DNA of 64,000 nucleotides from an uncultured Methanosarcinales archaeon (GCA_964527395.1 CAZGQD010000003.1:29124-93123), one strand, 5' to 3'. Numbered from the stretch's first letter, positions 10,396-58,198 are shown. The notes: generated from the sequence alone by a model not told the origin. Program-made: numbers and translations.

Positions 10396-11709
10396 TTATA
10401 GGTTCTTTTCGGTTAGGATTTGGATGCTTGTTTTGCCACCAGTTGTATCCTTACCAGCAATTAAGTAACTAACCTTTAATTTTTCAGCTGTTTTTGCTAG
10501 TTCTAAATTAACTTCGCCATCAAGAACAATTGCGTGGATTCCTCCTCCAAGGCTTTTAATGGTGGAATTTAGCTCTGTTAGAGGTACTTTACCTAGAATT
10601 GATAGTTTGCCATCAAAGATGCATGCGCCTCTAGTTCCGAAAAGGTCTTCCAAAGTTTCTTTGAATTTCTTTTTCTCACTGTCAGCTAGAGCTTTTGTAG
10701 GAGTTCTAGCTGCGGGAGTGTCTCTTGGAGATGATCTTTGGTTTGATCTCATAGGTTTTTTGTTCCGATCATTGTTCCTATTTCGATCGTTTCTATCATT
10801 TCTTTTGTTATCGCTTCGTTTGATAACTTTTTGTTTTAATTTGATATCTTGGTTGATCAATTCTCCAGTTTCAGTGATACCCAGGTCTAATCTAGCTTGC
10901 TCGGCTGTGATTTTTCCTCTCAAAGCTTTGTGGATTTCTTTTTTAGTTAGTTCTTCCACTTCTTTTCCATCAGGAGCACGGCAGACGAAGTCAACTTCAG
11001 CTACAGTAACTAATTCTCTGATGTTTAGGTTTCCACCACGGTCACCATCAACAAAAACAGTCATTGATTTCTTTTTAGATAATTCAATTAATGTTTTTGG
11101 AACTGAACTACCTTCCATGGAAATAGCGTTCTTGAAACCGTGCTTTAAAAGGATTAGAACATCAGCTCTACCTTCAACAACGATTACATCTTCACTATCT
11201 TCAATAGCCGGGCCACAAGGTAATTTGTCTTTACCATATTTTTTGATCTCATTCATTCTTACTGATTGTGCAACTTCTTGACTAATTTCTTGAGAGTCAG
11301 GAAGAGTGTGTTCAGTTAAGTTTTGTAAAAGCTCTTTAGCTCTTTTAATTACGTAGAGTCTTTTACTAATTCTGATATCTTCAATGGATTCAACCTTTAA
11401 CTTAGCGTTACAAGGCCCAATTCTTTGAATGATTTCTAGAGCAGCTCCAATAATTGCTGTTTCAGTTTTGTCTAAACTACTTGGAATAACAATTTCCCCA
11501 GTGGTTTTTCCACCAGTTGTAGATAAGTTTACTTCGATTCGACCAACTTTACCTGATCTTTGAAGTTCTCTTAGTTCTAGGTCACTTCCTAGTAATCCTT
11601 CAGTTTGTCCGAAAACAGCACCAATTACGTCTGGTCTGTCTACAATTCCATCAATTTTTATTGAAGTATGAACAATATATTTTGCTGCTACTTGGCTAAT
11701 TTTTGCCAT
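10396..11709 (-). CDS. dnaG: archaeal DnaG-type (TOPRIM) primase / exosome-associated DnaG
   Basis: N-terminus MAKISQVAAKYIVHTSIKIDGIVDRPDVIGAVFGQTEGLL matches archaeal DnaG, TOPRIM acidic cluster VVVEGRADV...DGDRGG is present, and a low-complexity R/N/D linker separates the domains. Confidence 0.8.
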   Translation of the reverse strand: MAKISQVAAKYIVHTSIKIDGIVDRPDVIGAVFGQTEGLLGSDLELRELQRSGKVGRIEVNLSTTGGKTTGEIVIPSSLDKTETAIIGAALEIIQRIGPCNAKLKVESIEDIRISKRLYVIKRAKELLQNLTEHTLPDSQEISQEVAQSVRMNEIKKYGKDKLPCGPAIEDSEDVIVVEGRADVLILLKHGFKNAISMEGSSVPKTLIELSKKKSMTVFVDGDRGGNLNIRELVTVAEVDFVCRAPDGKEVEELTKKEIHKALRGKITAEQARLDLGITETGELINQDIKLKQKVIKRSDNKRNDRNDRNRNNDRNKKPMRSNQRSSPRDTPAARTPTKALADSEKKKFKETLEDLFGTRGACIFDGKLSILGKVPLTELNSTIKSLGGGIHAIVLDGEVNLELAKTAEKLKVSYLIAGKDTTGGKTSIQILTEKNL

Positions 11710-11764
11710 TTTTATTTCACCTTTTGTGTGTTTAATACAAAGTTTATGTTTATTTTTTTCTTTG

Positions 11765-11852
11765 TATGTACTCGTCCGTAAATATTTATTAATACTTGGT
11801 TACGGATTCGAGACACAGTTCCGTAAACGAAACTGCGTGTTTAGAACGCAGT
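11765..11852. promoter_or_regulatory. conserved ~65-nt element (copy 1) with mutually exclusive hairpins built from TCCGTAA / TTACGGA blocks
   Basis: gtatgtactcgtccgtaa...cttggttacggattcgagacacagttccgtaa is near-identical to 33926-34016. The TTACGGA block can pair with either the upstream or the downstream TCCGTAA. Confidence 0.45.
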
Positions 11853-12287
11853 AATAGAATTAGCTCTTACAAAAGCAATAGTTTTGCAATTGTAGTTATA
11901 GTACTAGTCTACTTTCATTGCCAGGTGGTTTTTAGTAGATGTTTAGGTTTGTCAGGTCCTAAGTTGTAATACTTAAATGAGTTAATTGATTATTACTATT
12001 CGTTCAGGTATTGAACTTTGTTTTTTAATTCAATACCGGTTTTGCGATTATCGCAGTGAAGTTGTCAATTTCACTTTCTTACTTTAATGTTTTTAGAAAT
12101 CACTATCATCCTTGCTGCTACAATATCTGGTAGCTTGCAAGCTAAATACTTTTTTTACAAATTAAATGATGAATGTGATTTCTGATATTTGATTGTAATA
12201 CTTAGTTACTGGGTTAGGTACGGGTTTGGGGTTTATAAATGTTGTGTTTGGCTTGGTTTTAGGGTGTTTTTAGTGTGTAAAGTAGGT

Positions 12288-12500
12288 AAAATGATGGTCT
12301 ATTTGGTTTGAATCGGTTAAAATGAGTTTTATTTCGCTTGAATCGGGAGAAACAAGCTTCTTTTGCCGTTTAGAGGTTAAAATGGACTTATTTTCTGTTT
12401 TAACGGCTAAAATGCTCTTTATTTGGCAAATGGAGGTCAAAATGGAGGTATTTTGGCAAAAGAAGGTAAAAATTGTCTTTAAATTGAGTTTAATAACAAT
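12288..12500. repeat. about seven degenerate ~30-bp tandem repeats (ggtWaaaatgRnnttatttNgnttgaa...)
   Basis: Direct reading of the sequence; the units share the gcaaaagaaggt/attttgg core that is also present at 41860-42030. Confidence 0.6.
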
Positions 12501-12673
12501 AAGTTTTACTTAAAATTCTTTGAAATTTTGATGAAGAGAAAAGGACCTCAGAAGGCCACAAGGGCCAACTGAGGAAAGAGGTGGTTTTGAGGTGTTTTGA
12601 TACTACTGTAAAATAGTGTTTACTTTATAAATGTTTGGGTCTTTTTGTTACTTATTAGTAGTTTTCTTGGAAA

Positions 12674-13795
12674 ATGCTTATAAATATGAGTTGTTTTGAG
12701 AGAAAAATGGCAAAAGTGATGGTTCTTACTGATCAAACAACAGGAAGGCGAGTTGTAGTTAGAGGTAACACTCAAATTGGAAGACTCTCTTTTCATGAAA
12801 GAGGAATGTGGAAGGTAAGGGGAAGAAATAAACCTAAAGTTTTTGATAGTTTAGATACTTTAGTTTGTGTTTCTGAAGTAAATAAAGTAGTTTCTAGAAA
12901 TCATGCTGCTTTAATCCAGGGAGTTGATGGAGAATTTCATATTGAAGATATGAATAGTAAGCATGGAACTTATGTAAATGGGGATAATATAAACCCAAGT
13001 AAAAGTGATTCAAGGAGTGTATTATTAAGAGAAAGGGATGCTCTTCAGATTGGAAGAAGAACTCGTGGAATTGATGATTGTTTTTTGAATTTTGAAATTT
13101 CTTATCAAGAGTCTGAAAATTATGCATTGCTTGTTGGTACTGGGTCTGATAATTTAGGGGCTGCGCAAAGAGGTTTAGATTCTTTGGAAAGAGTTCTTAG
13201 GAGAAGAGGGTATGTTGTTAGGGTTTTACCTGAAGAAGAAGCAAGCAAATCTAGATTAAGAGAAGAATTAAGAAATATTGCAAATATGTCTATTGCAGAA
13301 TCACATAATATTATTTCAATTTATGGGCATGGAAGCCATAATGGTTTTATGTTGGGTGGACAAGTAATGAATGCAAGAGAATTTTATAAAGAAGTAGGGA
13401 GGATTGCTGGGAAAAAAGCAGCTTTATTGGAGTTTTGTTATTCAGGATCTTTTGTAAGGGGAAGAAATTTAGGGAGGATTCCTGATGGTACTTTAGTTTT
13501 GACAGCATCTAATGCATTTAGTGAAGCAAATGAGACAGAAGATTATGTTGAAGGTCAAGAAGAATTAAGATCAGAATACATAGGTAGATTGGCTAAACAG
13601 TTTGCAGGATATTTGGAAAGAAACCCAGGGCAAATTAATTTGAGGGAATTTTATGATCAATTGAGTGTAGTTTTAGGTGCTAGGAATTTGATGTTGCAAG
13701 GACCTCAGATAGAAGGAGATTTTTACGAGATTCCTGCGGTGAATGAAGGGTTTCATACAGTTATTCTTGATGTTGATCAAATTGAGAATTACTAG
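12674..13795 (+). CDS. FHA domain fused to a caspase/metacaspase/legumain-like cysteine peptidase domain
   Basis: FHA signature VSRNHAALIQ...IEDMNSKHGTYVNG. C-terminal half has YALLVGTGSDNL, the His motif IYGHGSHNG and the Cys motif LLEFCYSGSF, matching the caspase-hemoglobinase fold (C14/C13) catalytic dyad. Confidence 0.65.
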   Translation: MLINMSCFERKMAKVMVLTDQTTGRRVVVRGNTQIGRLSFHERGMWKVRGRNKPKVFDSLDTLVCVSEVNKVVSRNHAALIQGVDGEFHIEDMNSKHGTYVNGDNINPSKSDSRSVLLRERDALQIGRRTRGIDDCFLNFEISYQESENYALLVGTGSDNLGAAQRGLDSLERVLRRRGYVVRVLPEEEASKSRLREELRNIANMSIAESHNIISIYGHGSHNGFMLGGQVMNAREFYKEVGRIAGKKAALLEFCYSGSFVRGRNLGRIPDGTLVLTASNAFSEANETEDYVEGQEELRSEYIGRLAKQFAGYLERNPGQINLREFYDQLSVVLGARNLMLQGPQIEGDFYEIPAVNEGFHTVILDVDQIENY

Positions 13796-13827
13796 TTTTT
13801 ATGCTGGTTTTTTGAGAAGTTCTTTGG

Positions 13828-13979
13828 TTGCGCAATTTGCTCGTTTTGTTTTGTTTTTCTGCGCAATTTTCCCAGTTGATTCTATTTTGCTTGTTTTTGT
13901 CTGATTTTGTGCTTAAATTTCTTGTTTTTTGGCTGCGCAATTTTCCCGTTTGTTTTTATTTTAGTGCGCAATTTTCCCA
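13828..13979. promoter_or_regulatory. four copies of a palindrome-containing operator-like repeat (T/C)TGCGCAATTT(T/G)C(CC/TC), arranged as two pairs
   Basis: Occurrences begin at 13828, 13859, 13933 and 13965 (spacings 31, 74, 32 bp). TTGCGCAA is a perfect palindrome. Located directly upstream of the RelA/SpoT-like gene. Confidence 0.45.
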
Positions 13980-14013
13980 AAGTTTTAAAAAAGAGGGTTT
14001 CTTTTATGGTGTT

Positions 14014-15081
14014 ATGAAGAAAATTGATCTTAAAAAGTTCTCTAAATCTAAGACAGATTGGGCTGGAAAAGTACTTTGTGATTCTAGTAGGTCGGAAGAG
14101 GATAAAAATGTTGCCTTAGAGATTCTTAGCAATTGGAGGGCTGCACATAGTTATCCTATGCATATTTTTACTAATCGGTTACGTAGAATTTCAGGGAGTT
14201 TGGATTCAGGGGCTTTAGTAGCTCAGAGGCTTAAAAGAGTTCCATCGATAATTAAGAAACTTAAGCGTAGTTATGGTGGCAAAAAGGCTAGTATGAAACT
14301 TAGTCAGATGCAAGATATTGCAGGATGTAGGGTAGTTATGTCAGATATAGATTTAGTTAGGAAGATTTATTCTGAGTATTATGTTAATGGGGATTTGAAG
14401 CATGAAAAAGTTAATGAGAAGAATTACATCTTGAACCCTAAAAGTGATGGATATCGAAGCATACATTTGATTTATAGATTTTTTAGTGACAAAGGTAAGG
14501 CAGATTATAATGGGCTTCTTGTTGAAGTGCAAATACGTTCTAAATTACAGCATTTGTGGGCTACAGCTGTTGAAACTGTTGATTTTTTTACTAGGCAAGC
14601 AATTAAATCTAATCAAGGGCAAAAGGATTGGGCGGATTTTTTTAGATTGGTTAGTTCTGCGTTTGCTCTGTTTGAGGGATGTAGCTCTGTTCCTGGAGTT
14701 CCTATTCGGGAGAAAGAGTTGTATGCTATGATTTTTAAAATGGAAAAAGAATTGCAAGTTCGTCGTAAGATGAAGAGTTGGATGGAATCTATAGAAGTCT
14801 TAGATGAGATGAAGAGTAAATATGGTAGTTCTTACTTTTTATTGGAGCTTGATACTGTTCGAGGAAAATTGATAGTTACTGGTTATTCAAAAAAGCAGGA
14901 GAAAAGAGCTCTTAGAGAATATTCTGAAGTTGAGAAGAGAATATATGGCAGGCCTGAGTATGATGTGGTTTTAGTTGGAGCAGATACAAGTGAAGATTTG
15001 AAGAAAGTGTATCCTAACTATTTTTTAGATACTCGAGATTTTATTAGGTACTTGAATCTTATTTTGAAGAAGGTTAAATAG
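14014..15081 (+). CDS. RelA/SpoT-domain nucleotidyltransferase (small alarmone synthetase / toxSAS-like) with a ~150-aa C-terminal extension
   Basis: All synthetase-domain blocks present: RLKRVPSIIKKLKR, MQDIAGCRVVM, SDGYRSIHLIY, VEVQIRSKLQHLWATAVE. Start trimmed to MKKIDLKKF, because the listed upstream extension translates the operator repeats. Confidence 0.75.
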   Translation: MKKIDLKKFSKSKTDWAGKVLCDSSRSEEDKNVALEILSNWRAAHSYPMHIFTNRLRRISGSLDSGALVAQRLKRVPSIIKKLKRSYGGKKASMKLSQMQDIAGCRVVMSDIDLVRKIYSEYYVNGDLKHEKVNEKNYILNPKSDGYRSIHLIYRFFSDKGKADYNGLLVEVQIRSKLQHLWATAVETVDFFTRQAIKSNQGQKDWADFFRLVSSAFALFEGCSSVPGVPIREKELYAMIFKMEKELQVRRKMKSWMESIEVLDEMKSKYGSSYFLLELDTVRGKLIVTGYSKKQEKRALREYSEVEKRIYGRPEYDVVLVGADTSEDLKKVYPNYFLDTRDFIRYLNLILKKVK

Positions 15082-15088
15082 CTGTTGT

Positions 15089-15322
15089 TTAAGATCCAAG
15101 AGAGATTTTTAGGGGTAATTTTAGGTTAATTTCTGCTTTTTTTGCGGTTCTTTTTTTGAAACCTAAGATGCCAAATCCGACGGTTTCACCAGTTTCTTCA
15201 TCTATTCTTTCAAAGATTCCTTCTTTAATGTCTTTGACGTAACTTTTTGGGAAGTTTCCTAGATTAATCTCTAGAAAATCTCCTTCTTGATCATAATAGA
15301 TGTGTAAATTACCTTTCATCAT
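15089..15322 (-). CDS. DUF2283-like small protein (antitoxin-like partner)
   Basis: 77 aa with the YYDQEGDFLEI motif characteristic of DUF2283; translationally coupled to the upstream gene. Confidence 0.45.
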   Translation of the reverse strand: MMKGNLHIYYDQEGDFLEINLGNFPKSYVKDIKEGIFERIDEETGETVGFGILGFKKRTAKKAEINLKLPLKISLGS

Positions 15323-15654
15323 TGTATTCTCCTCACAAAATGTACTGTAATTATGAAGCCATGTCCATTTAAGTACTTTACTATGACTTTTAGGTATTTT
15401 GCTTTTGATTGTCTATGCTTATAGTAACGATAATATGAATGAACTTGGTGGTCAAAAGAGTAATTTGTGATTTTTATTGGCTCTTTTAGAGTTTCTTTGA
15501 TAAATTCAAGATTATGTTGGACTTCAGGGTGCAAGGAAAGCATAGCTTTCCTGCACAGGAAATTATTAATTTCCTTGTGTTTTGATAGATGATTCCAACG
15601 TTCTTTTGTTAAGCGAATGAATCTTTTTGATTTGTCAATGATTTTGAATATCAT
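15319..15654 (-). CDS. DUF4258-like small toxin-like protein
   Basis: 111 aa; overlaps the downstream DUF2283-like gene by 4 nt; IRLTKERWNHLSKHKE resembles the DUF4258 'T.HA...R..R' block. Confidence 0.4.
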   Translation of the reverse strand: MIFKIIDKSKRFIRLTKERWNHLSKHKEINNFLCRKAMLSLHPEVQHNLEFIKETLKEPIKITNYSFDHQVHSYYRYYKHRQSKAKYLKVIVKYLNGHGFIITVHFVRRIQ

Positions 15655-15848
15655 GAAAGATAATTTTGGAAGAAGTTATTAATGAATAAAGTGGTTCTGG
15701 ATTATTTATATTATAAAATTTTATTAGGTACAAGAAAATTAACAATTTTCTGTACTGAAAATCTTAGATTTTCATGTACTTGAATCTTATTTTGAAGAAG
15801 GTTTAGCCTAAAGTTTTATTATAGAGCTTTGTTTTTCTTTAGTTAATC

Positions 15849-16565
15849 ATGGTTACACTTACATATCAAGAACGGTTCAAAACAGCTAAAGGAGTCTTTG
15901 ATGCTTTTACTAAAAGAAATTTGTTTGAGTTATCACAGCGAGGTTTTTTTGATGAAATTATTTCGCCACTTAAGGTAGGAAAGGAAAGTAATGTGTTTTT
16001 GGCTAGTTCTGGGAAAGGTTTTTTGATAATTAAGATCTATCGTGTACAGAATGCTGATTTTAAAGGGATGTATAAGTATATTAGTTTAGATCCTAGGTAT
16101 GAGAAGTTGAAGAAGAGGAGGCGTGAAATTATATTTTCTTGGGTGCGACGTGAGTATCAGAATCTGTTTGTGGCTAAGAAAAATGGAGTTAGAGTTCCGA
16201 AAGTGTATACAGTGAAGCATAACGTTCTTGTTTTAGATATTGTGGGGAAGAAAAAATCTGGAGAAGTTGCCTTGCCTTTGAAGGATACTGTTCCAGTTGA
16301 TCCTGAGAAGTTTTTAGATGGAATTTTGTTTCAAGTACGTAAATTGTGGAAGAAAGCTGGGTTGGTGCATGGAGATTTGTCATCTTTTAATATTTTGAAT
16401 GATAATGAGAAGCCTGTTTTGATTGATTTTTCGCAGTCGACGCTGGTGAAGTCTTCTAACGCTGATGAGTTGTTACGTAGGGATTTGAAGAATGTTCTTG
16501 GGTGGTTTAGGAAGTTAGGGGTTGTTAGGGATTTGGATGAAGTGTATGCCAAGATTGTTAAGTGA
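15849..16565 (+). CDS. rio1: RIO-type serine/threonine protein kinase (Rio1-like, no N-terminal wHTH)
   Basis: ESNVFLA glycine-loop-like region, LVHGDLSSFNIL catalytic loop and LIDFSQS metal-binding loop. Confidence 0.8.
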   Translation: MVTLTYQERFKTAKGVFDAFTKRNLFELSQRGFFDEIISPLKVGKESNVFLASSGKGFLIIKIYRVQNADFKGMYKYISLDPRYEKLKKRRREIIFSWVRREYQNLFVAKKNGVRVPKVYTVKHNVLVLDIVGKKKSGEVALPLKDTVPVDPEKFLDGILFQVRKLWKKAGLVHGDLSSFNILNDNEKPVLIDFSQSTLVKSSNADELLRRDLKNVLGWFRKLGVVRDLDEVYAKIVK

Positions 16566-31618: not shown

Positions 31619-31761
31619 GGACCTGTAGCCTAGTCTGGATATGGTTAAAATTGGTTTTTTGCTGATTTTTTCTTAGGATTCATATGGCACCAGCCTTCTA
31701 GTTAGCATGAATTTGCTGATAAGACAGCTGGGGGTCGAGGGTTCGAATCCCTCCAGGTCCG
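31619..31761 (+). tRNA. tRNA-Arg(TCT) candidate with two introns, one in the D-loop region and one at 37/38 in the anticodon loop
   Basis: Acceptor ggacctg/caggtcc, U8-A9, T-arm gaggg-TTCGAAT-ccctc, anticodon stem ccagc/gctgg with loop ct-TCT-a interrupted by a ~25-nt insert, and a ~42-nt insert between the D-loop and the D-stem 3' strand. Confidence 0.5.
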
Positions 31762-41859: not shown

Positions 41860-42030
41860 TCAATTTAGAGCTTATTTTGGCTGATTTAGAGCAAAAGAAG
41901 GTTGTTTTAAGCTATTTGGGCGAAAAGAAGGCTGTTTTGGCCGATTTAGAGCAAAAGAAGGTCATTTTAGGGGATTTGAGGGAAAAGGAGGCTAATTTGG
42001 GCTTTTTAGAAAGGAAGGTTTTTATTGTGT
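41860..42030. repeat. about five degenerate ~30-bp tandem repeats (gatttagagcaaaagaaggtYRttttRRg...), same family as 12288-12500
   Basis: Direct reading; ORF 41835-42050 is a translation of the repeats and is considered spurious. Confidence 0.6.
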
Positions 42031-42043
42031 TGTTAGAGTTTAG

Positions 42044-42844
42044 TTGTTAATGGTAGAATTAGTTACTTTTGTTCTGGTTGTTTTTGTAGGTCTAATTACT
42101 GGTTTTGTTGATTCAGTTATTGGAGCAGGAGGATTGATATCAATACCTTTTTTGATTTTTACAGGAGTTCCGCCACAAGTTGCTATTGCAACAGACAAAT
42201 TTGGTCTGCTTGGGCATATATTTGGGTCTATCCCTAAGTTTTGGAAGGAGAAAAAGATTGTTTGGAAATATGTCCCTTTGTTGTCTTTGTTGGGGATAAT
42301 TGGAGGGTATATTGGAACTAAGATAATAATTAGTGTGAATGAGGCTGCTTTGACAAAAGTTGTTGGGTTTGCTATCTTGTTTTTGTTGCCAGTTGTGTTT
42401 TTTAAGAAAGATTTAGGTTTGATTAAAAAGAAAGTTTCTAATTTGAAGAAAATAATTAGGTACTAGGAAATCGAGGATTTCCTGTACAGGAAAGCTTCGC
42501 TTTCCTTGTATCCGTTGTATTTACTTGCAATGATTTTTGGAGCGTCTATAAGTGCAGGATCAGGACCTATAGTGTTATTGTTTCTAGTATCTTTTTTTGG
42601 TTTAACTTTTATTCAAGCAAATGCAACAGATCAAATATCTTGGTTTTTTTTGTCTATTGTATCTTTGATAGTGTTTGGAATCAATGGTTTGATTGATTTT
42701 TGGCTTGGAATTGCAATATTGATAGGAATGAGTATTGGAGGTTACTATGATGTGAAAGTTGCTGTTAATAAAGGGAATGTTTGGGTTAGAAAGGCATTTG
42801 TAGTGGTTGTGGTATTGTCTGGGTTGAAATTGTTGTTTTTGTAG
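42044..42844 (+). pseudogene. TauE/SafE (DUF81) family anion permease interrupted by a single in-frame TAG at 42464-42466; pseudogene or read-through/recoding candidate
   Basis: ORF 42044-42466 (N-terminal repeat, GAGGLISIPFL) and ORF 42506-42844 (C-terminal repeat, TTG start) are in the same frame, separated only by TAG plus 39 nt. The combined product would be ~265 aa, the usual TauE length. Confidence 0.55.
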
Positions 42845-45654: not shown

Positions 45655-46033
45655 GTAGATTACGCTAGGAAGCTGACGGTATCTTTATTGATGCTGAGGA
45701 AGGTCCGCCCACCGTAAATGAGCCTCCTTTTTAGGAGCTGGAGAAATTCAGGGCTCTGGAACAGAAACGACACGTCCTAAGTCTAGGCACTTAAAAACAC
45801 TTTGTGTTTTTAGGGCCAGAAAATCATATGATTTTCTTGGAATGATATGTGTGAAGCTTTGCGTGAGTGAAGGGAGTTAATCACTTGACTGTTTGAAACT
45901 TAGGGAACGATGAAACGGCGAAACCGCTCTGGTGCAAGTCTTTGACGCTTAGTCGAATGCTTCCAAATGCTTATCGGTAGTACTTTATTGTGCTGCTTTG
46001 GAGTATACAGAAGGTGGCCTATTGCGTGACTAC
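45655..46033 (+). ncRNA. rnpB: RNase P RNA candidate
   Basis: GC-rich island in an AT-rich region. 5' block GAGGAAGGTCCGCCCACC resembles P4 GAGGAAAGUCCGGGCUCC, internal ACAGAAACGACACG is present, 3' block ACAGAAGGTGGCCTATTGCG resembles ACAGAACCCGGCUUAUCG, and the terminal gcgtgactac/gtagattacgc can pair as P1. Confidence 0.55.
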
Positions 46034-57437: not shown

Positions 57438-57481
57438 TTTGTGTGAAATAGTTTATAAATAGAGAGTTTTGAGGTGTTTAT

Positions 57482-58198
57482 ATGTTAAGATTAATTGGAA
57501 ATGACCTGCCAGAATATGTTAGTTCTGAGGTTGGAAGATTCGTTGCAAAATATAAGGAGGAATTAGGTGAAGACTTTTTGTTTGATCCTAGAATCTGTTT
57601 AACTAGAGGTAATGATTATATTGTTGCTTTAGAATCATTTGGTAGAGTTGGAGCAAAGGTGAATGTTGGAGATGTTTCTGGGATAGAATTATCTGATTTG
57701 AGAAGTGGGCTTAGTCATGCAGTAGCTAATTTGCCTTTTTTGTTAAGGGGAGCTAGTGAGAGAGCTTATGCAATACAGCCTTTTGCGTATCAAAGAGATA
57801 AGAGTGGGTTTGATTTAAGTGAAGCTCCAGAAGGAGCTGATGATTTATTTTTGTATGTAAAATATAAAGGTTCACCTTTGGAAGGGAGAGTTGATGTTTG
57901 TTTTGGAGGAGAACAAGCAAGTGGAATTAATTTTTTGGAGTTGCGTGATACTGGAAGGATTTTAGGTGAAGCAGTAGGAGTATTATATCATGAACTTTGT
58001 GAAAGTTCAAATTCAGTTTTTAGTGAGGGGTCATTATTAAGTGAAGCTTGGAAAGAATGGAATAATGTACTTAGAAATATGCATCCATTGCTTATTGCAG
58101 CAGATAAATTTGGAGATAAGTATGATATGTCTTCTCAAGGGAATTGGATTAAGAGTAGAAGTTTTGAAAGAGTGCCTAAGATTACTCGAGTTTATTGA
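57482..58198 (+). CDS. hypothetical protein
   Basis: 238-aa ORF. Confidence 0.35.
   Translation: MLRLIGNDLPEYVSSEVGRFVAKYKEELGEDFLFDPRICLTRGNDYIVALESFGRVGAKVNVGDVSGIELSDLRSGLSHAVANLPFLLRGASERAYAIQPFAYQRDKSGFDLSEAPEGADDLFLYVKYKGSPLEGRVDVCFGGEQASGINFLELRDTGRILGEAVGVLYHELCESSNSVFSEGSLLSEAWKEWNNVLRNMHPLLIAADKFGDKYDMSSQGNWIKSRSFERVPKITRVY

Follow-up and report, generated by a model that had tools for sequence, protein, structure and literature searches.

We analyzed a 64,000-nucleotide stretch of an uncultured Methanosarcinales archaeon (GCA_964527395.1, CAZGQD010000003.1:29124-93123; hereafter the window, numbered from its first letter), in which two neighbouring genes on the plus strand are preceded by a long non-coding tract (region 11,710-15,081). 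Gene A (12707..13795) encodes a protein of 362 amino acids with an FHA domain and a caspase-like domain, and gene B (14014..15081) encodes a protein of 355 amino acids that resembles CapRel, a RelA/SpoT enzyme in which toxin and antitoxin are fused. Four short direct repeats lie upstream of gene B, a DUF2283/DUF4258 gene pair follows on the minus strand, and the whole is bounded by dnaG on the left and rio on the right. A model's reading of the sequence alone (the sequence-only reading) had taken genes A and B for one combined system of protease and synthetase. Its sequence features are confirmed and its interpretation is borne out in part. Both open reading frames (ORFs) lie where that reading had placed them, with 12707 and 14014 as the likely true starts. 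In our analysis, the region is probably a small island of variable gene content within the conserved dnaG-rio spacer, composed of three independent modules.

The FHA-caspase protein and the CapRel-type enzyme

The start of gene A at 12707 (MAKVMV...) agrees with the family alignment and with public gene calls. Its FHA domain (12869-13054), already recognized in the sequence-only reading, was recovered by Pfam above the cut-off (E = 1.8e-11, 44.7 bits versus 20.7), and the phosphothreonine-binding residues G25, R26, S63, R64, H66, G87 and N91 are nearly invariant in a 40-member alignment. The C-terminal half (caspase-fold domain, ~13100-13726) of the window protein searched alone gave no Pfam match, including no Peptidase_C14 at E ≤ 0.1, and its match to the NCBIfam model 'caspase, EACC1-associated type' (caspase_w_EACC1) was weak (E = 1.5e-4, far under the cut-off); word-indexed homologue searches with the gene A sequence returned only the self-match. 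An exhaustive HMMER scan with residues 132-362 yielded 100 representative relatives, 13 of them at E ≤ 1e-30, nearly all of which are 330-360 amino acids long and have the same architecture with the caspase domain at an equal position. When 40 family members were aligned, Peptidase_C14 was matched by 35 (best 2e-16), Peptidase_C13 by 14 and FHA by 38, and in the PDB the family profile matched the bacterial caspase homologue GSU0716 (3bij, 5e-14) as well as metacaspases and GPI transamidase. Since the window protein has no Pfam C14 match of its own, the caspase assignment is drawn from the family rather than from the lone window sequence.

The predicted catalytic residues, H208 (GHG; codon 13328-13330, plus strand) and C244 (CxSG in the window protein, CxxG in the family; codon 13436-13438, plus strand), are kept in at least 90% of the 40 members. 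The AlphaFold2 model of gene A had a mean predicted local distance difference test score (pLDDT) of 92.5 and a predicted template modelling score of 0.86; Foldseek matched it to legumains, GPI transamidase and caspase-7/3/1 at E ~1e-8 with probability 1.00, and its N-terminal part to FHA domains including those of SLMAP and RNF8. The family alignment and the model point to an FHA domain joined to a caspase-hemoglobinase fold with a His-Cys dyad, i.e. a predicted protease, so that the caspase/metacaspase/legumain motifs picked out in the sequence-only reading have held up.

Gene A shares its fold with the prokaryotic caspase homologues (orthocaspases/metacaspases, Peptidase_C14, clan CD; GSU0716, 3BIJ), and its His-Gly and Cys motifs follow the expected strands as in those proteins. 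Prokaryotic caspase homologues are commonly fused to a protein-interaction domain (PMC3501461), which is likewise the case in gene A. Unlike them, gene A has an N-terminal FHA domain as the fusion partner within a compact protein of ~340 amino acids, belongs to a small family (~100 clusters at 50% identity, the named members of which are archaeal), and diverges too far to pass Pfam alone. NCBI names of family members include 'FHA domain-containing protein [archaeon]' and 'caspase family protein [Ca. Woesearchaeota archaeon]'. A survey of 2012 (PMC3501461) reported metacaspases in few Euryarchaeota only and its text does not mention FHA; a literature search for FHA together with orthocaspase found nothing. 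A small archaeal FHA-caspase family is now defined, which is a candidate for a direct link from Ser/Thr phosphorylation to caspase-type proteolysis in archaea.

Regarding gene B, translation likely starts at 14014 (MKKIDL...), the TTG at 13828 being only a mechanical extension of the ORF. The RelA_SpoT domain was matched by Pfam above the cut-off (3.7e-19), and the protein aligned over its full length with Salmonella CapRel(SJ46) (7ztb/9erv; E = 1.1e-42, 30% identity, residues 5-348), bearing out the fused toxSAS/CapRel outline that had been proposed from the sequence. In the CapRel(SJ46) numbering of Zhang et al. 2022 (PMC9712102), R79, R116, Y155 and Y352/Y355 correspond to R72, R106, the G-loop residue Y147 and Y333/Y336 (Y333-P-N-Y336) of gene B, and V338 and L339 are kept. 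These key residues, including the YXXY motif, are invariant in 31 archaeal homologues. The best PDB matches of the AlphaFold2 model of gene B were the Salmonella CapRel structures (E = 3e-19, 357 columns), and RelQ and RelP folds were also matched. At residues 274-322 the model predicts a beta-beta-alpha-beta arrangement (strands 274-280 and 285-291, helix 293-309, strand 316-322; local pLDDT ~70-84), which has the topology of the CapRel pseudo-zinc-finger domain (pseudo-ZFD), an antiparallel sheet of three strands with a helix between the second and third.

CapRel(SJ46), from Salmonella phage SJ46, is a tRNA pyrophosphokinase in which toxin and antitoxin are fused (7ZTB, 9ERV; PMC9712102), and gene B shares with it the length and whole-protein architecture: both are single-gene modules with a toxSYNTH core, a C-terminal beta-beta-alpha-beta domain and a YXXY neutralisation motif. 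Gene B differs from CapRel(SJ46) in its archaeal (DPANN) host, in a C-terminal sensor that is strongly conserved and not hypervariable, and in the multi-copy ACYGCGCAAAA box that its clade carries 5' of an archaeal TATA box. The single-gene PADLOC model PDC-S33 also matched gene B over its full length (1.6e-117, residues 7-352 on profile positions 6-343 of 349), which is a hidden Markov model classification rather than a demonstrated function; the model carries no description, and no mention of it was found in a literature search. The 'PDC' in this label denotes an untested phage-defence candidate.

The gene B family is large, with more than 5000 relatives scored, the best 120 of which are 60-70% identical. 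A scan of one genome per species gave 277 confirmed stretches, and the taxonomy was read for the best 80; these are nearly all archaeal and mostly DPANN (Nanoarchaeota/Woesearchaeota, Pacearchaeota, Aenigmatarchaeota, Micrarchaeota, Iainarchaeota, Nanohaloarchaea, Methanosarcinales, Methanoperedens and Nitrososphaera), with a few from bins labelled Patescibacteria or Gammaproteobacteria. RelA/SpoT proteins of the CapRel type are common in DPANN archaea, and for this family the earlier statement that RelA/SpoT homologues are rare in archaea is not supported. In the literature, our search for CapRel-type proteins in archaea gave only a passing remark, 'even some archaea'. The present analysis shows a CapRel-type fused toxin-antitoxin that is spread widely, and with strong conservation, through DPANN and other archaea.

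Within the archaeal clade, pairwise identity was 0.76 in the sensor (residues 271-325), 0.81 in the catalytic core and 0.63 in the linker, values that are biased upward in absolute terms by the use of best matches. The pseudo-ZFD is the least conserved region of bacterial CapRels (PMC9712102). The archaeal clade departs from the bacterial paradigm twice, in its conserved sensor domain and in a conserved multi-box promoter element, and both differences bear on how single-protein immune sensors are controlled and on whether viruses are sensed by them at all in archaea whose genomes are very small.

In an all-against-all clustering of the CapRel loci, no ORF family besides CapRel itself occurred in more than 6 of 81 loci, barring antisense ORFs within the gene; gene B is a single-gene module without a partner gene. 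In L003, a contig of the same population that comes from a different sample, a C-to-T change at window position 14620 (L003 position 2995) converts Gln203 to a stop codon and is one of only 2 differences over 4975 bp. Judged by its sequence, the L003 copy of gene B represents a naturally occurring loss-of-function or truncation allele. The split RelA_SpoT genes in two other loci (L004, L005) were rejected as frameshifts, being scaffolding artefacts with N runs, and only the L003 nonsense allele is real.

Promoter boxes and proposed control of the CapRel-type clade

Four direct YGCGCAA boxes on the plus strand (13829-13842, 13860-13873, 13934-13947 and 13965-13978) constitute an operator-like element of the CapRel gene. 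Three of them are exact TGCGCAATTTTCCC, and they are laid out in two 56-nt units that lie 105 nt apart and are 84% alike. Four palindromic repeats in two pairs had been described at this place; the number and pairing stand, whereas the full 8-bp palindrome TTGCGCAA is present in the first box only and the other boxes share the 6-bp palindrome TGCGCA. The window has 10 YGCGCAA sites versus 2.9 expected, a count reached by no shuffle, and the remaining sites of the window are all within coding regions. A TATA-like box, TTTTAAAAAA (13983..13992, plus strand), stands 31 nt before the CapRel ATG and is the counterpart of TTTAAATA in the homologues.

The same element was found in front of the archaeal homologues. 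In 77 CapRel loci, GCGCA[AT] in the gene orientation occurred at 12.2 per kb in the upstream 200 nt and at 0.245 per kb elsewhere (50-fold), with at least 2 copies in 63 loci and 4 copies in 19. The positions peak near -46, -79, -98 and -128 from the CapRel start, the orientation is biased (187 forward versus 32 reverse), and the consensus is ACYGCGCAAAA, the proximal copy of which lies 6-7 nt upstream of TTTAAATA. The four-box layout of the window recurs in a Nanoarchaeales genome (L040). When 1.6 Mb were scanned for same-strand box clusters, 60 were located strictly within the 260 nt that precede a CapRel homologue, and 29 further clusters were found, of which ~9 are CapRel-adjacent and ~20 are unrelated and taken to be chance. 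Among phage-borne bacterial CapRels (30-43% identical, IMG/VR), the box was present in 2 of 41 loci and absent from 39. The box is a cis-element specific to this clade, and it has followed the CapRel gene from one archaeal phylum to another. The operator repeats of the sequence-only reading are operator-like and conserved; they accompany CapRel alone across archaeal phyla, and an operator shared by genes A and B is not supported.

Type II toxin-antitoxin operators, which the antitoxin binds, likewise consist of multiple short repeats immediately upstream of, and overlapping, the toxin-gene promoter, co-inherited with the gene. Gene B differs from such modules in that toxin and antitoxin are one polypeptide under an archaeal promoter, that the boxes are direct and not inverted, and that binding by its own product is hypothetical. 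Since nothing else co-travels with the box, binding of the boxes by CapRel itself is an attractive hypothesis, and it fits a C-terminal domain that is as conserved as the core. We tentatively suggest, while considering it rather doubtful, that the DPANN-wide CapRel clade might be a self-contained autoregulated switch, the conserved C-terminal domain of which would also recognise the ACYGCGCAAAA promoter boxes. If this were true, a single polypeptide would be toxin, antitoxin, sensor and repressor, which would explain the joint movement of gene and box between phyla. The CapRel paper (PMC9712102) mentions neither autoregulation nor an operator.

The depth of conservation in this clade also suits a different role, in which the archaeal CapRel-like protein would serve DPANN as a conserved enzyme of stress response or growth control, gated at the level of transcription and acting by translation shut-off or nucleotide signalling in response to a conserved cellular ligand and not as an antiviral sensor. 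Identity is 53-70% across Nanoarchaeota, Aenigmatarchaeota, Micrarchaeota, Iainarchaeota, Nanohaloarchaea, Methanosarcinales and Nitrososphaera, the sensor domain shows no hypervariability, the conserved promoter architecture implies regulated expression, and the neighbourhoods are variable and mostly housekeeping, not consistently defence islands. Such a role is at odds with the full-length match to a PADLOC defence-candidate model and with the retention of the YXXY autoinhibition motif and interface residues. In addition, the distribution is patchy with 60-70% identity between distant phyla, which points to horizontal transfer typical of defence or toxin-antitoxin genes, a nonsense allele segregates in the population, and the window copy is located in a variable hotspot beside a toxin-antitoxin-like cassette. 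We regard the stress-enzyme explanation as unlikely.

A much weaker case can be made that the repeats are left over from promoters duplicated in tandem, or from the end of a mobile element, and have no regulatory role. The distal boxes of many homologues are each trailed by their own A/T-rich TATA-like stretch, resembling a duplicated promoter, and the likeness of the two 56-nt units in the window could be read in the same way. However, the GCGCA core is invariant while flanks and copy number vary across phyla, the orientation is fixed and the positions are phased to the start codon over the 77 loci; neutral remnants would not persist at such depth, and we consider this explanation very improbable.

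The dnaG-rio island and the lack of linkage between genes A and B

The left flank of the region is dnaG (10396..11709, minus strand; archaeal primase, Toprim; Pfam Toprim_4/Toprim_2), whose relatives are 56-71% identical, and the right flank is rio (15849..16565, plus strand; RIO kinase; Pfam RIO1, 3.3e-46), which is syntenic with KH and dnaG in relatives. For comparison, 80 metagenome loci with DnaG in this identity range were collected. The order KH-rio-gap-dnaG, with dnaG and rio divergent, was seen in ~35 of the 80. In most of them the dnaG-rio gap measures 590-820 bp and is without cargo, whereas in ~10 it is 1.7-7.8 kb and holds unrelated ORFs; in the window it spans 4139 bp and is occupied by genes A and B together with the DUF pair. 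Since the gap of cargo-free relatives already measures 590-820 bp, the ~960-bp tract before gene A (11710..12706) is the ancestral dnaG-rio spacer and not a 5' leader of gene A, as which it had been described; gene A has its own TATA-like element near the ATG.

Cargo-bearing gaps include L095:2687-8271, L099:5557-8454, L113:3454-5853, L125:5833-8187, L128:1009-8103 and L135:5913-8339. In several relatives the cargo is a large ORF of 770-970 amino acids with DEDD-exonuclease-like motifs (DIE..., HN..FD) recognized by eye only. In each cargo-bearing relative examined, the main cargo is located between a candidate small RNA gene of the spacer (described below) and rio; in L094 and L128 a further ORF separates this candidate from dnaG.

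The DUF2283 (15089-15322) and DUF4258-like (15319-15654) genes form a toxin-antitoxin-like cassette on the minus strand (15089..15654) and overlap by 4 nt. Of the pair named in the sequence-only reading, DUF2283 exceeds the Pfam cut-off (1.4e-5, 25.6 bits versus 23), while the DUF4258 match is weak and sub-threshold (E = 0.012, 16.3 bits versus 25). A perfect direct repeat of 28 nt, GTACTTGAATCTTATTTTGAAGAAGGTT, brackets the cassette on the plus strand, with the left copy (15048..15075) in the last CapRel codons and the right copy (15776..15803) a relic of the CapRel 3' end ahead of rio; an extra partial copy lies at 15718-15741. Because the repeat flanks the DUF pair and its right copy is a CapRel relic, the cassette entered the 3' end of the CapRel gene in an insertion of its own. 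The island looks to have been assembled stepwise at the hotspot.

We then considered the linkage of genes A and B, which lie on the same strand with a spacing of 218 bp. In a profile search of 80 CapRel loci, no FHA-caspase ORF was found within 6 kb of a CapRel homologue (0/80), while the same pipeline recovered four positive controls. Reciprocally, none of eight distinct FHA-caspase contexts had a RelA_SpoT neighbour (0/8); these contexts have differing, mostly housekeeping neighbours (diphthamide synthase, ribosomal S15, Spt5-NGN, ZPR1, OapB/C, methionine aminopeptidase). In 789 kb around the relatives' dnaG, neither FHA-caspase nor CapRel was found. Each gene is preceded by a TATA-like element 21-31 nt before its ATG, that of gene A being TTATAAAT (12679..12686, plus strand; 21-28 nt 5' of the ATG), a putative promoter of a leaderless mRNA, and the T-runs (TTTTT, TTTTTT) right after the gene A stop (13796..13825, plus strand) are likely an archaeal oligo-T terminator. 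Because these T-runs would end gene A and each gene has its own TATA-like element, the sequence suggests that A and B are separate leaderless transcripts. The FHA-caspase and CapRel genes are independent cargo, and one two-gene system is not supported.

The combined system of the sequence-only reading, a signalling or abortive-infection module that could be pictured with a shared operator and, for example, with a phospho-signal recruiting the protease to cleave off the C-terminal antitoxin part and unleash the synthetase, draws on the adjacency of the two genes, on the occurrence of both gene types in conflict systems (the weak EACC1-associated caspase match; PADLOC PDC-S33) and on the toxicity of CapRel without its C-terminus (PMC9712102), but is already close to refuted and highly improbable, since the genes are never co-located in the loci surveyed (an outcome that the sequence-only reading had itself named as refuting it), CapRel has no conserved neighbour, the boxes accompany CapRel alone, T-runs after the gene A stop and a TATA box before gene B separate the two, the repeat-flanked cassette shows piecemeal assembly, and relatives carry other cargo at the equivalent site. 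With it falls the attractive but unsupported idea of a new system built from three domains.

In the three-module island, the first module would be a stand-alone FHA-caspase, in which the FHA domain may dock on phosphothreonine proteins and thereby bring the His-Cys protease to them. The second would be CapRel: a trigger protein would bind the C-terminal antitoxin/sensor domain, and the enzyme thus opened would pyrophosphorylate tRNA 3' ends and halt translation. The CapRel gene would use its own promoter, with the four direct ACYGCGCAA-type boxes just 5' of the TATA box serving as the binding sites of a repressor or an activator. This regulator might be CapRel itself, after the manner of autoregulated type II toxin-antitoxin modules. 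The third would be the DUF4258/DUF2283 cassette as a later arrival at the CapRel 3' end, and the ancestral spacer would carry the candidate small RNA gene on the opposite strand.

Several points weigh against the three-module reading. The FHA-caspase contexts were sampled protein by protein, with 8 readable and several on short contigs, and the adjacency of A and B in the window genome still allows an accidental functional interplay. The gene B model is of moderate confidence (pLDDT 68), and the predicted tRNA activity, as opposed to alarmone synthesis, is extrapolated from 30% identity to one characterised enzyme. Finally, the archaeal sensor domain is about as conserved as the core, so that the variability expected from an arms race is not seen and the domain is a poor fit to an arms-race virus sensor.

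The ancestral spacer and the genomic setting

The comparison of the dnaG-rio spacers exposed, along with the insertion hotspot, two conserved and unannotated RNA-like elements. By BLAST against the spacers of 19 relatives, 12565-12652 was the only significantly similar block of the window spacer. It overlaps the candidate small RNA gene (Block B; 12532..12618, minus strand), which was found with an nhmmer profile in 30 of 80 relative loci as well as in the window, always in the spacer and in constant orientation. The candidate consists of a 5' tail, a 3' hairpin CCUCAGUUGGCCCUUGUGGCCUUCUGAGG and a U-run; the tail, ...AACACCUCAAAACCACCUCUUU, is conserved and single-stranded and contains two anti-Shine-Dalgarno-like CACCUC boxes. 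A TATA-like box, TTTATAAA (12626..12633, minus strand), which coincides with an ATATAAA block conserved in the alignment of relatives, would lie ~10 nt upstream of the 5' limit of the RNA (12618) and ~23 nt upstream of the conserved AGUAGUA at the start of the tail. The hairpins were folded sequence by sequence, as MAFFT with RNAalifold misaligned this variable part; in 24 homologues the median folding free energy was -21.6 (z = -5.5), and the stems stay perfectly paired, with compensatory sequence changes. Loops of the cUUCGg type occur in 10 of 29 hairpins, GNRA loops occur as well, and these loops make sense on the minus strand alone. Rfam gave no match in 11600-14100 even at E ≤ 1, the candidate RNA included. 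An exact 13-nt complement of the RNA tail, TTTTGAGGTGTTT, is located at 57467-57479 in a ribosome-binding site 5 nt before an ATG; the ORF it precedes (57482-58198, 238 amino acids, no Pfam match) is a possible target as a lead only, the number of one-mismatch matches being equal to chance.

The second element (Block A) is GC-rich, ~85 nt long and structured, has its own TATA box and was seen in ~65 of 80 relatives, 230-400 nt upstream of dnaG (for instance L112:8607-8731, L101:8656-8780 and L096:2322-2444). Its closing stem is GCCCG...CGGGC, the stretches GAGAGUACC and GGUUAGUG are conserved, the inner helices covary, and neither Rfam nor ARAGORN recognized it. Block A was undetected in the window, from which it is missing or in which it is too diverged to be recognized, and only weak in the closest relative (L094). 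Roughly in its place, with no detected sequence similarity to it, the window has a hairpin-rich stretch (11770..12075) that contains the alternative hairpins of the sequence-only reading. Hairpins are indeed predicted at 11770-11860 (z = -2.0 on the plus and -4.0 on the minus strand) and at 12000-12075 (z = -5.0 on the minus strand), but their description as conserved is not supported, since BLAST found no counterpart in the spacers of the 19 relatives.

The seven 30-bp tandem repeats reported upstream of gene A are a real array, which we count as ~6.5 degenerate units, 60-70% alike (12285..12480; lag-30 autocorrelation 0.61 versus a window mean of 0.31, standard deviation 0.046). It is specific to the window genome, no such array having been found by BLAST in the spacers of the 19 relatives. 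The only other lag-30 array of the window (41865-42012) lies right upstream of an ORF starting near 42052, and the two arrays share GCAAAAGAAGGT in a similar phase. Coding decapeptide repeats were considered as an explanation and rejected: one phase is open, but the second array has no start codons and the spacers of the 19 relatives have no comparable array.

With regard to the host, the window contains archaeal RNase P RNA (45656-46032) and proteins of archaeal type (DnaG, RIO kinase, a KH/PNO1-type protein and TopoVI-B), and its G+C content is ~34%. The nearest named relatives of its proteins are from Nanoarchaeota/Woesearchaeota and other DPANN bins, and judged by these sequences the host is a DPANN-type (Woesearchaeota-like) archaeon. 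A metagenome scaffold, SUTE22-1_SAMN10231911 (98.7 kb), is identical to the window. The sole tRNA detected in the 64 kb (31619-31761, 143 nt) was found by Rfam and missed by ARAGORN, and probably contains an intron. A replication origin in the long dnaG-rio spacer was considered and rejected, as the cumulative GC skew climbs monotonically, following the coding strand. The skew itself is strongly positive (~0.3-0.5) nearly window-wide and falls only at the minus-strand genes (10-12 kb); it tracks the coding strand, and the majority of window genes are on the plus strand.

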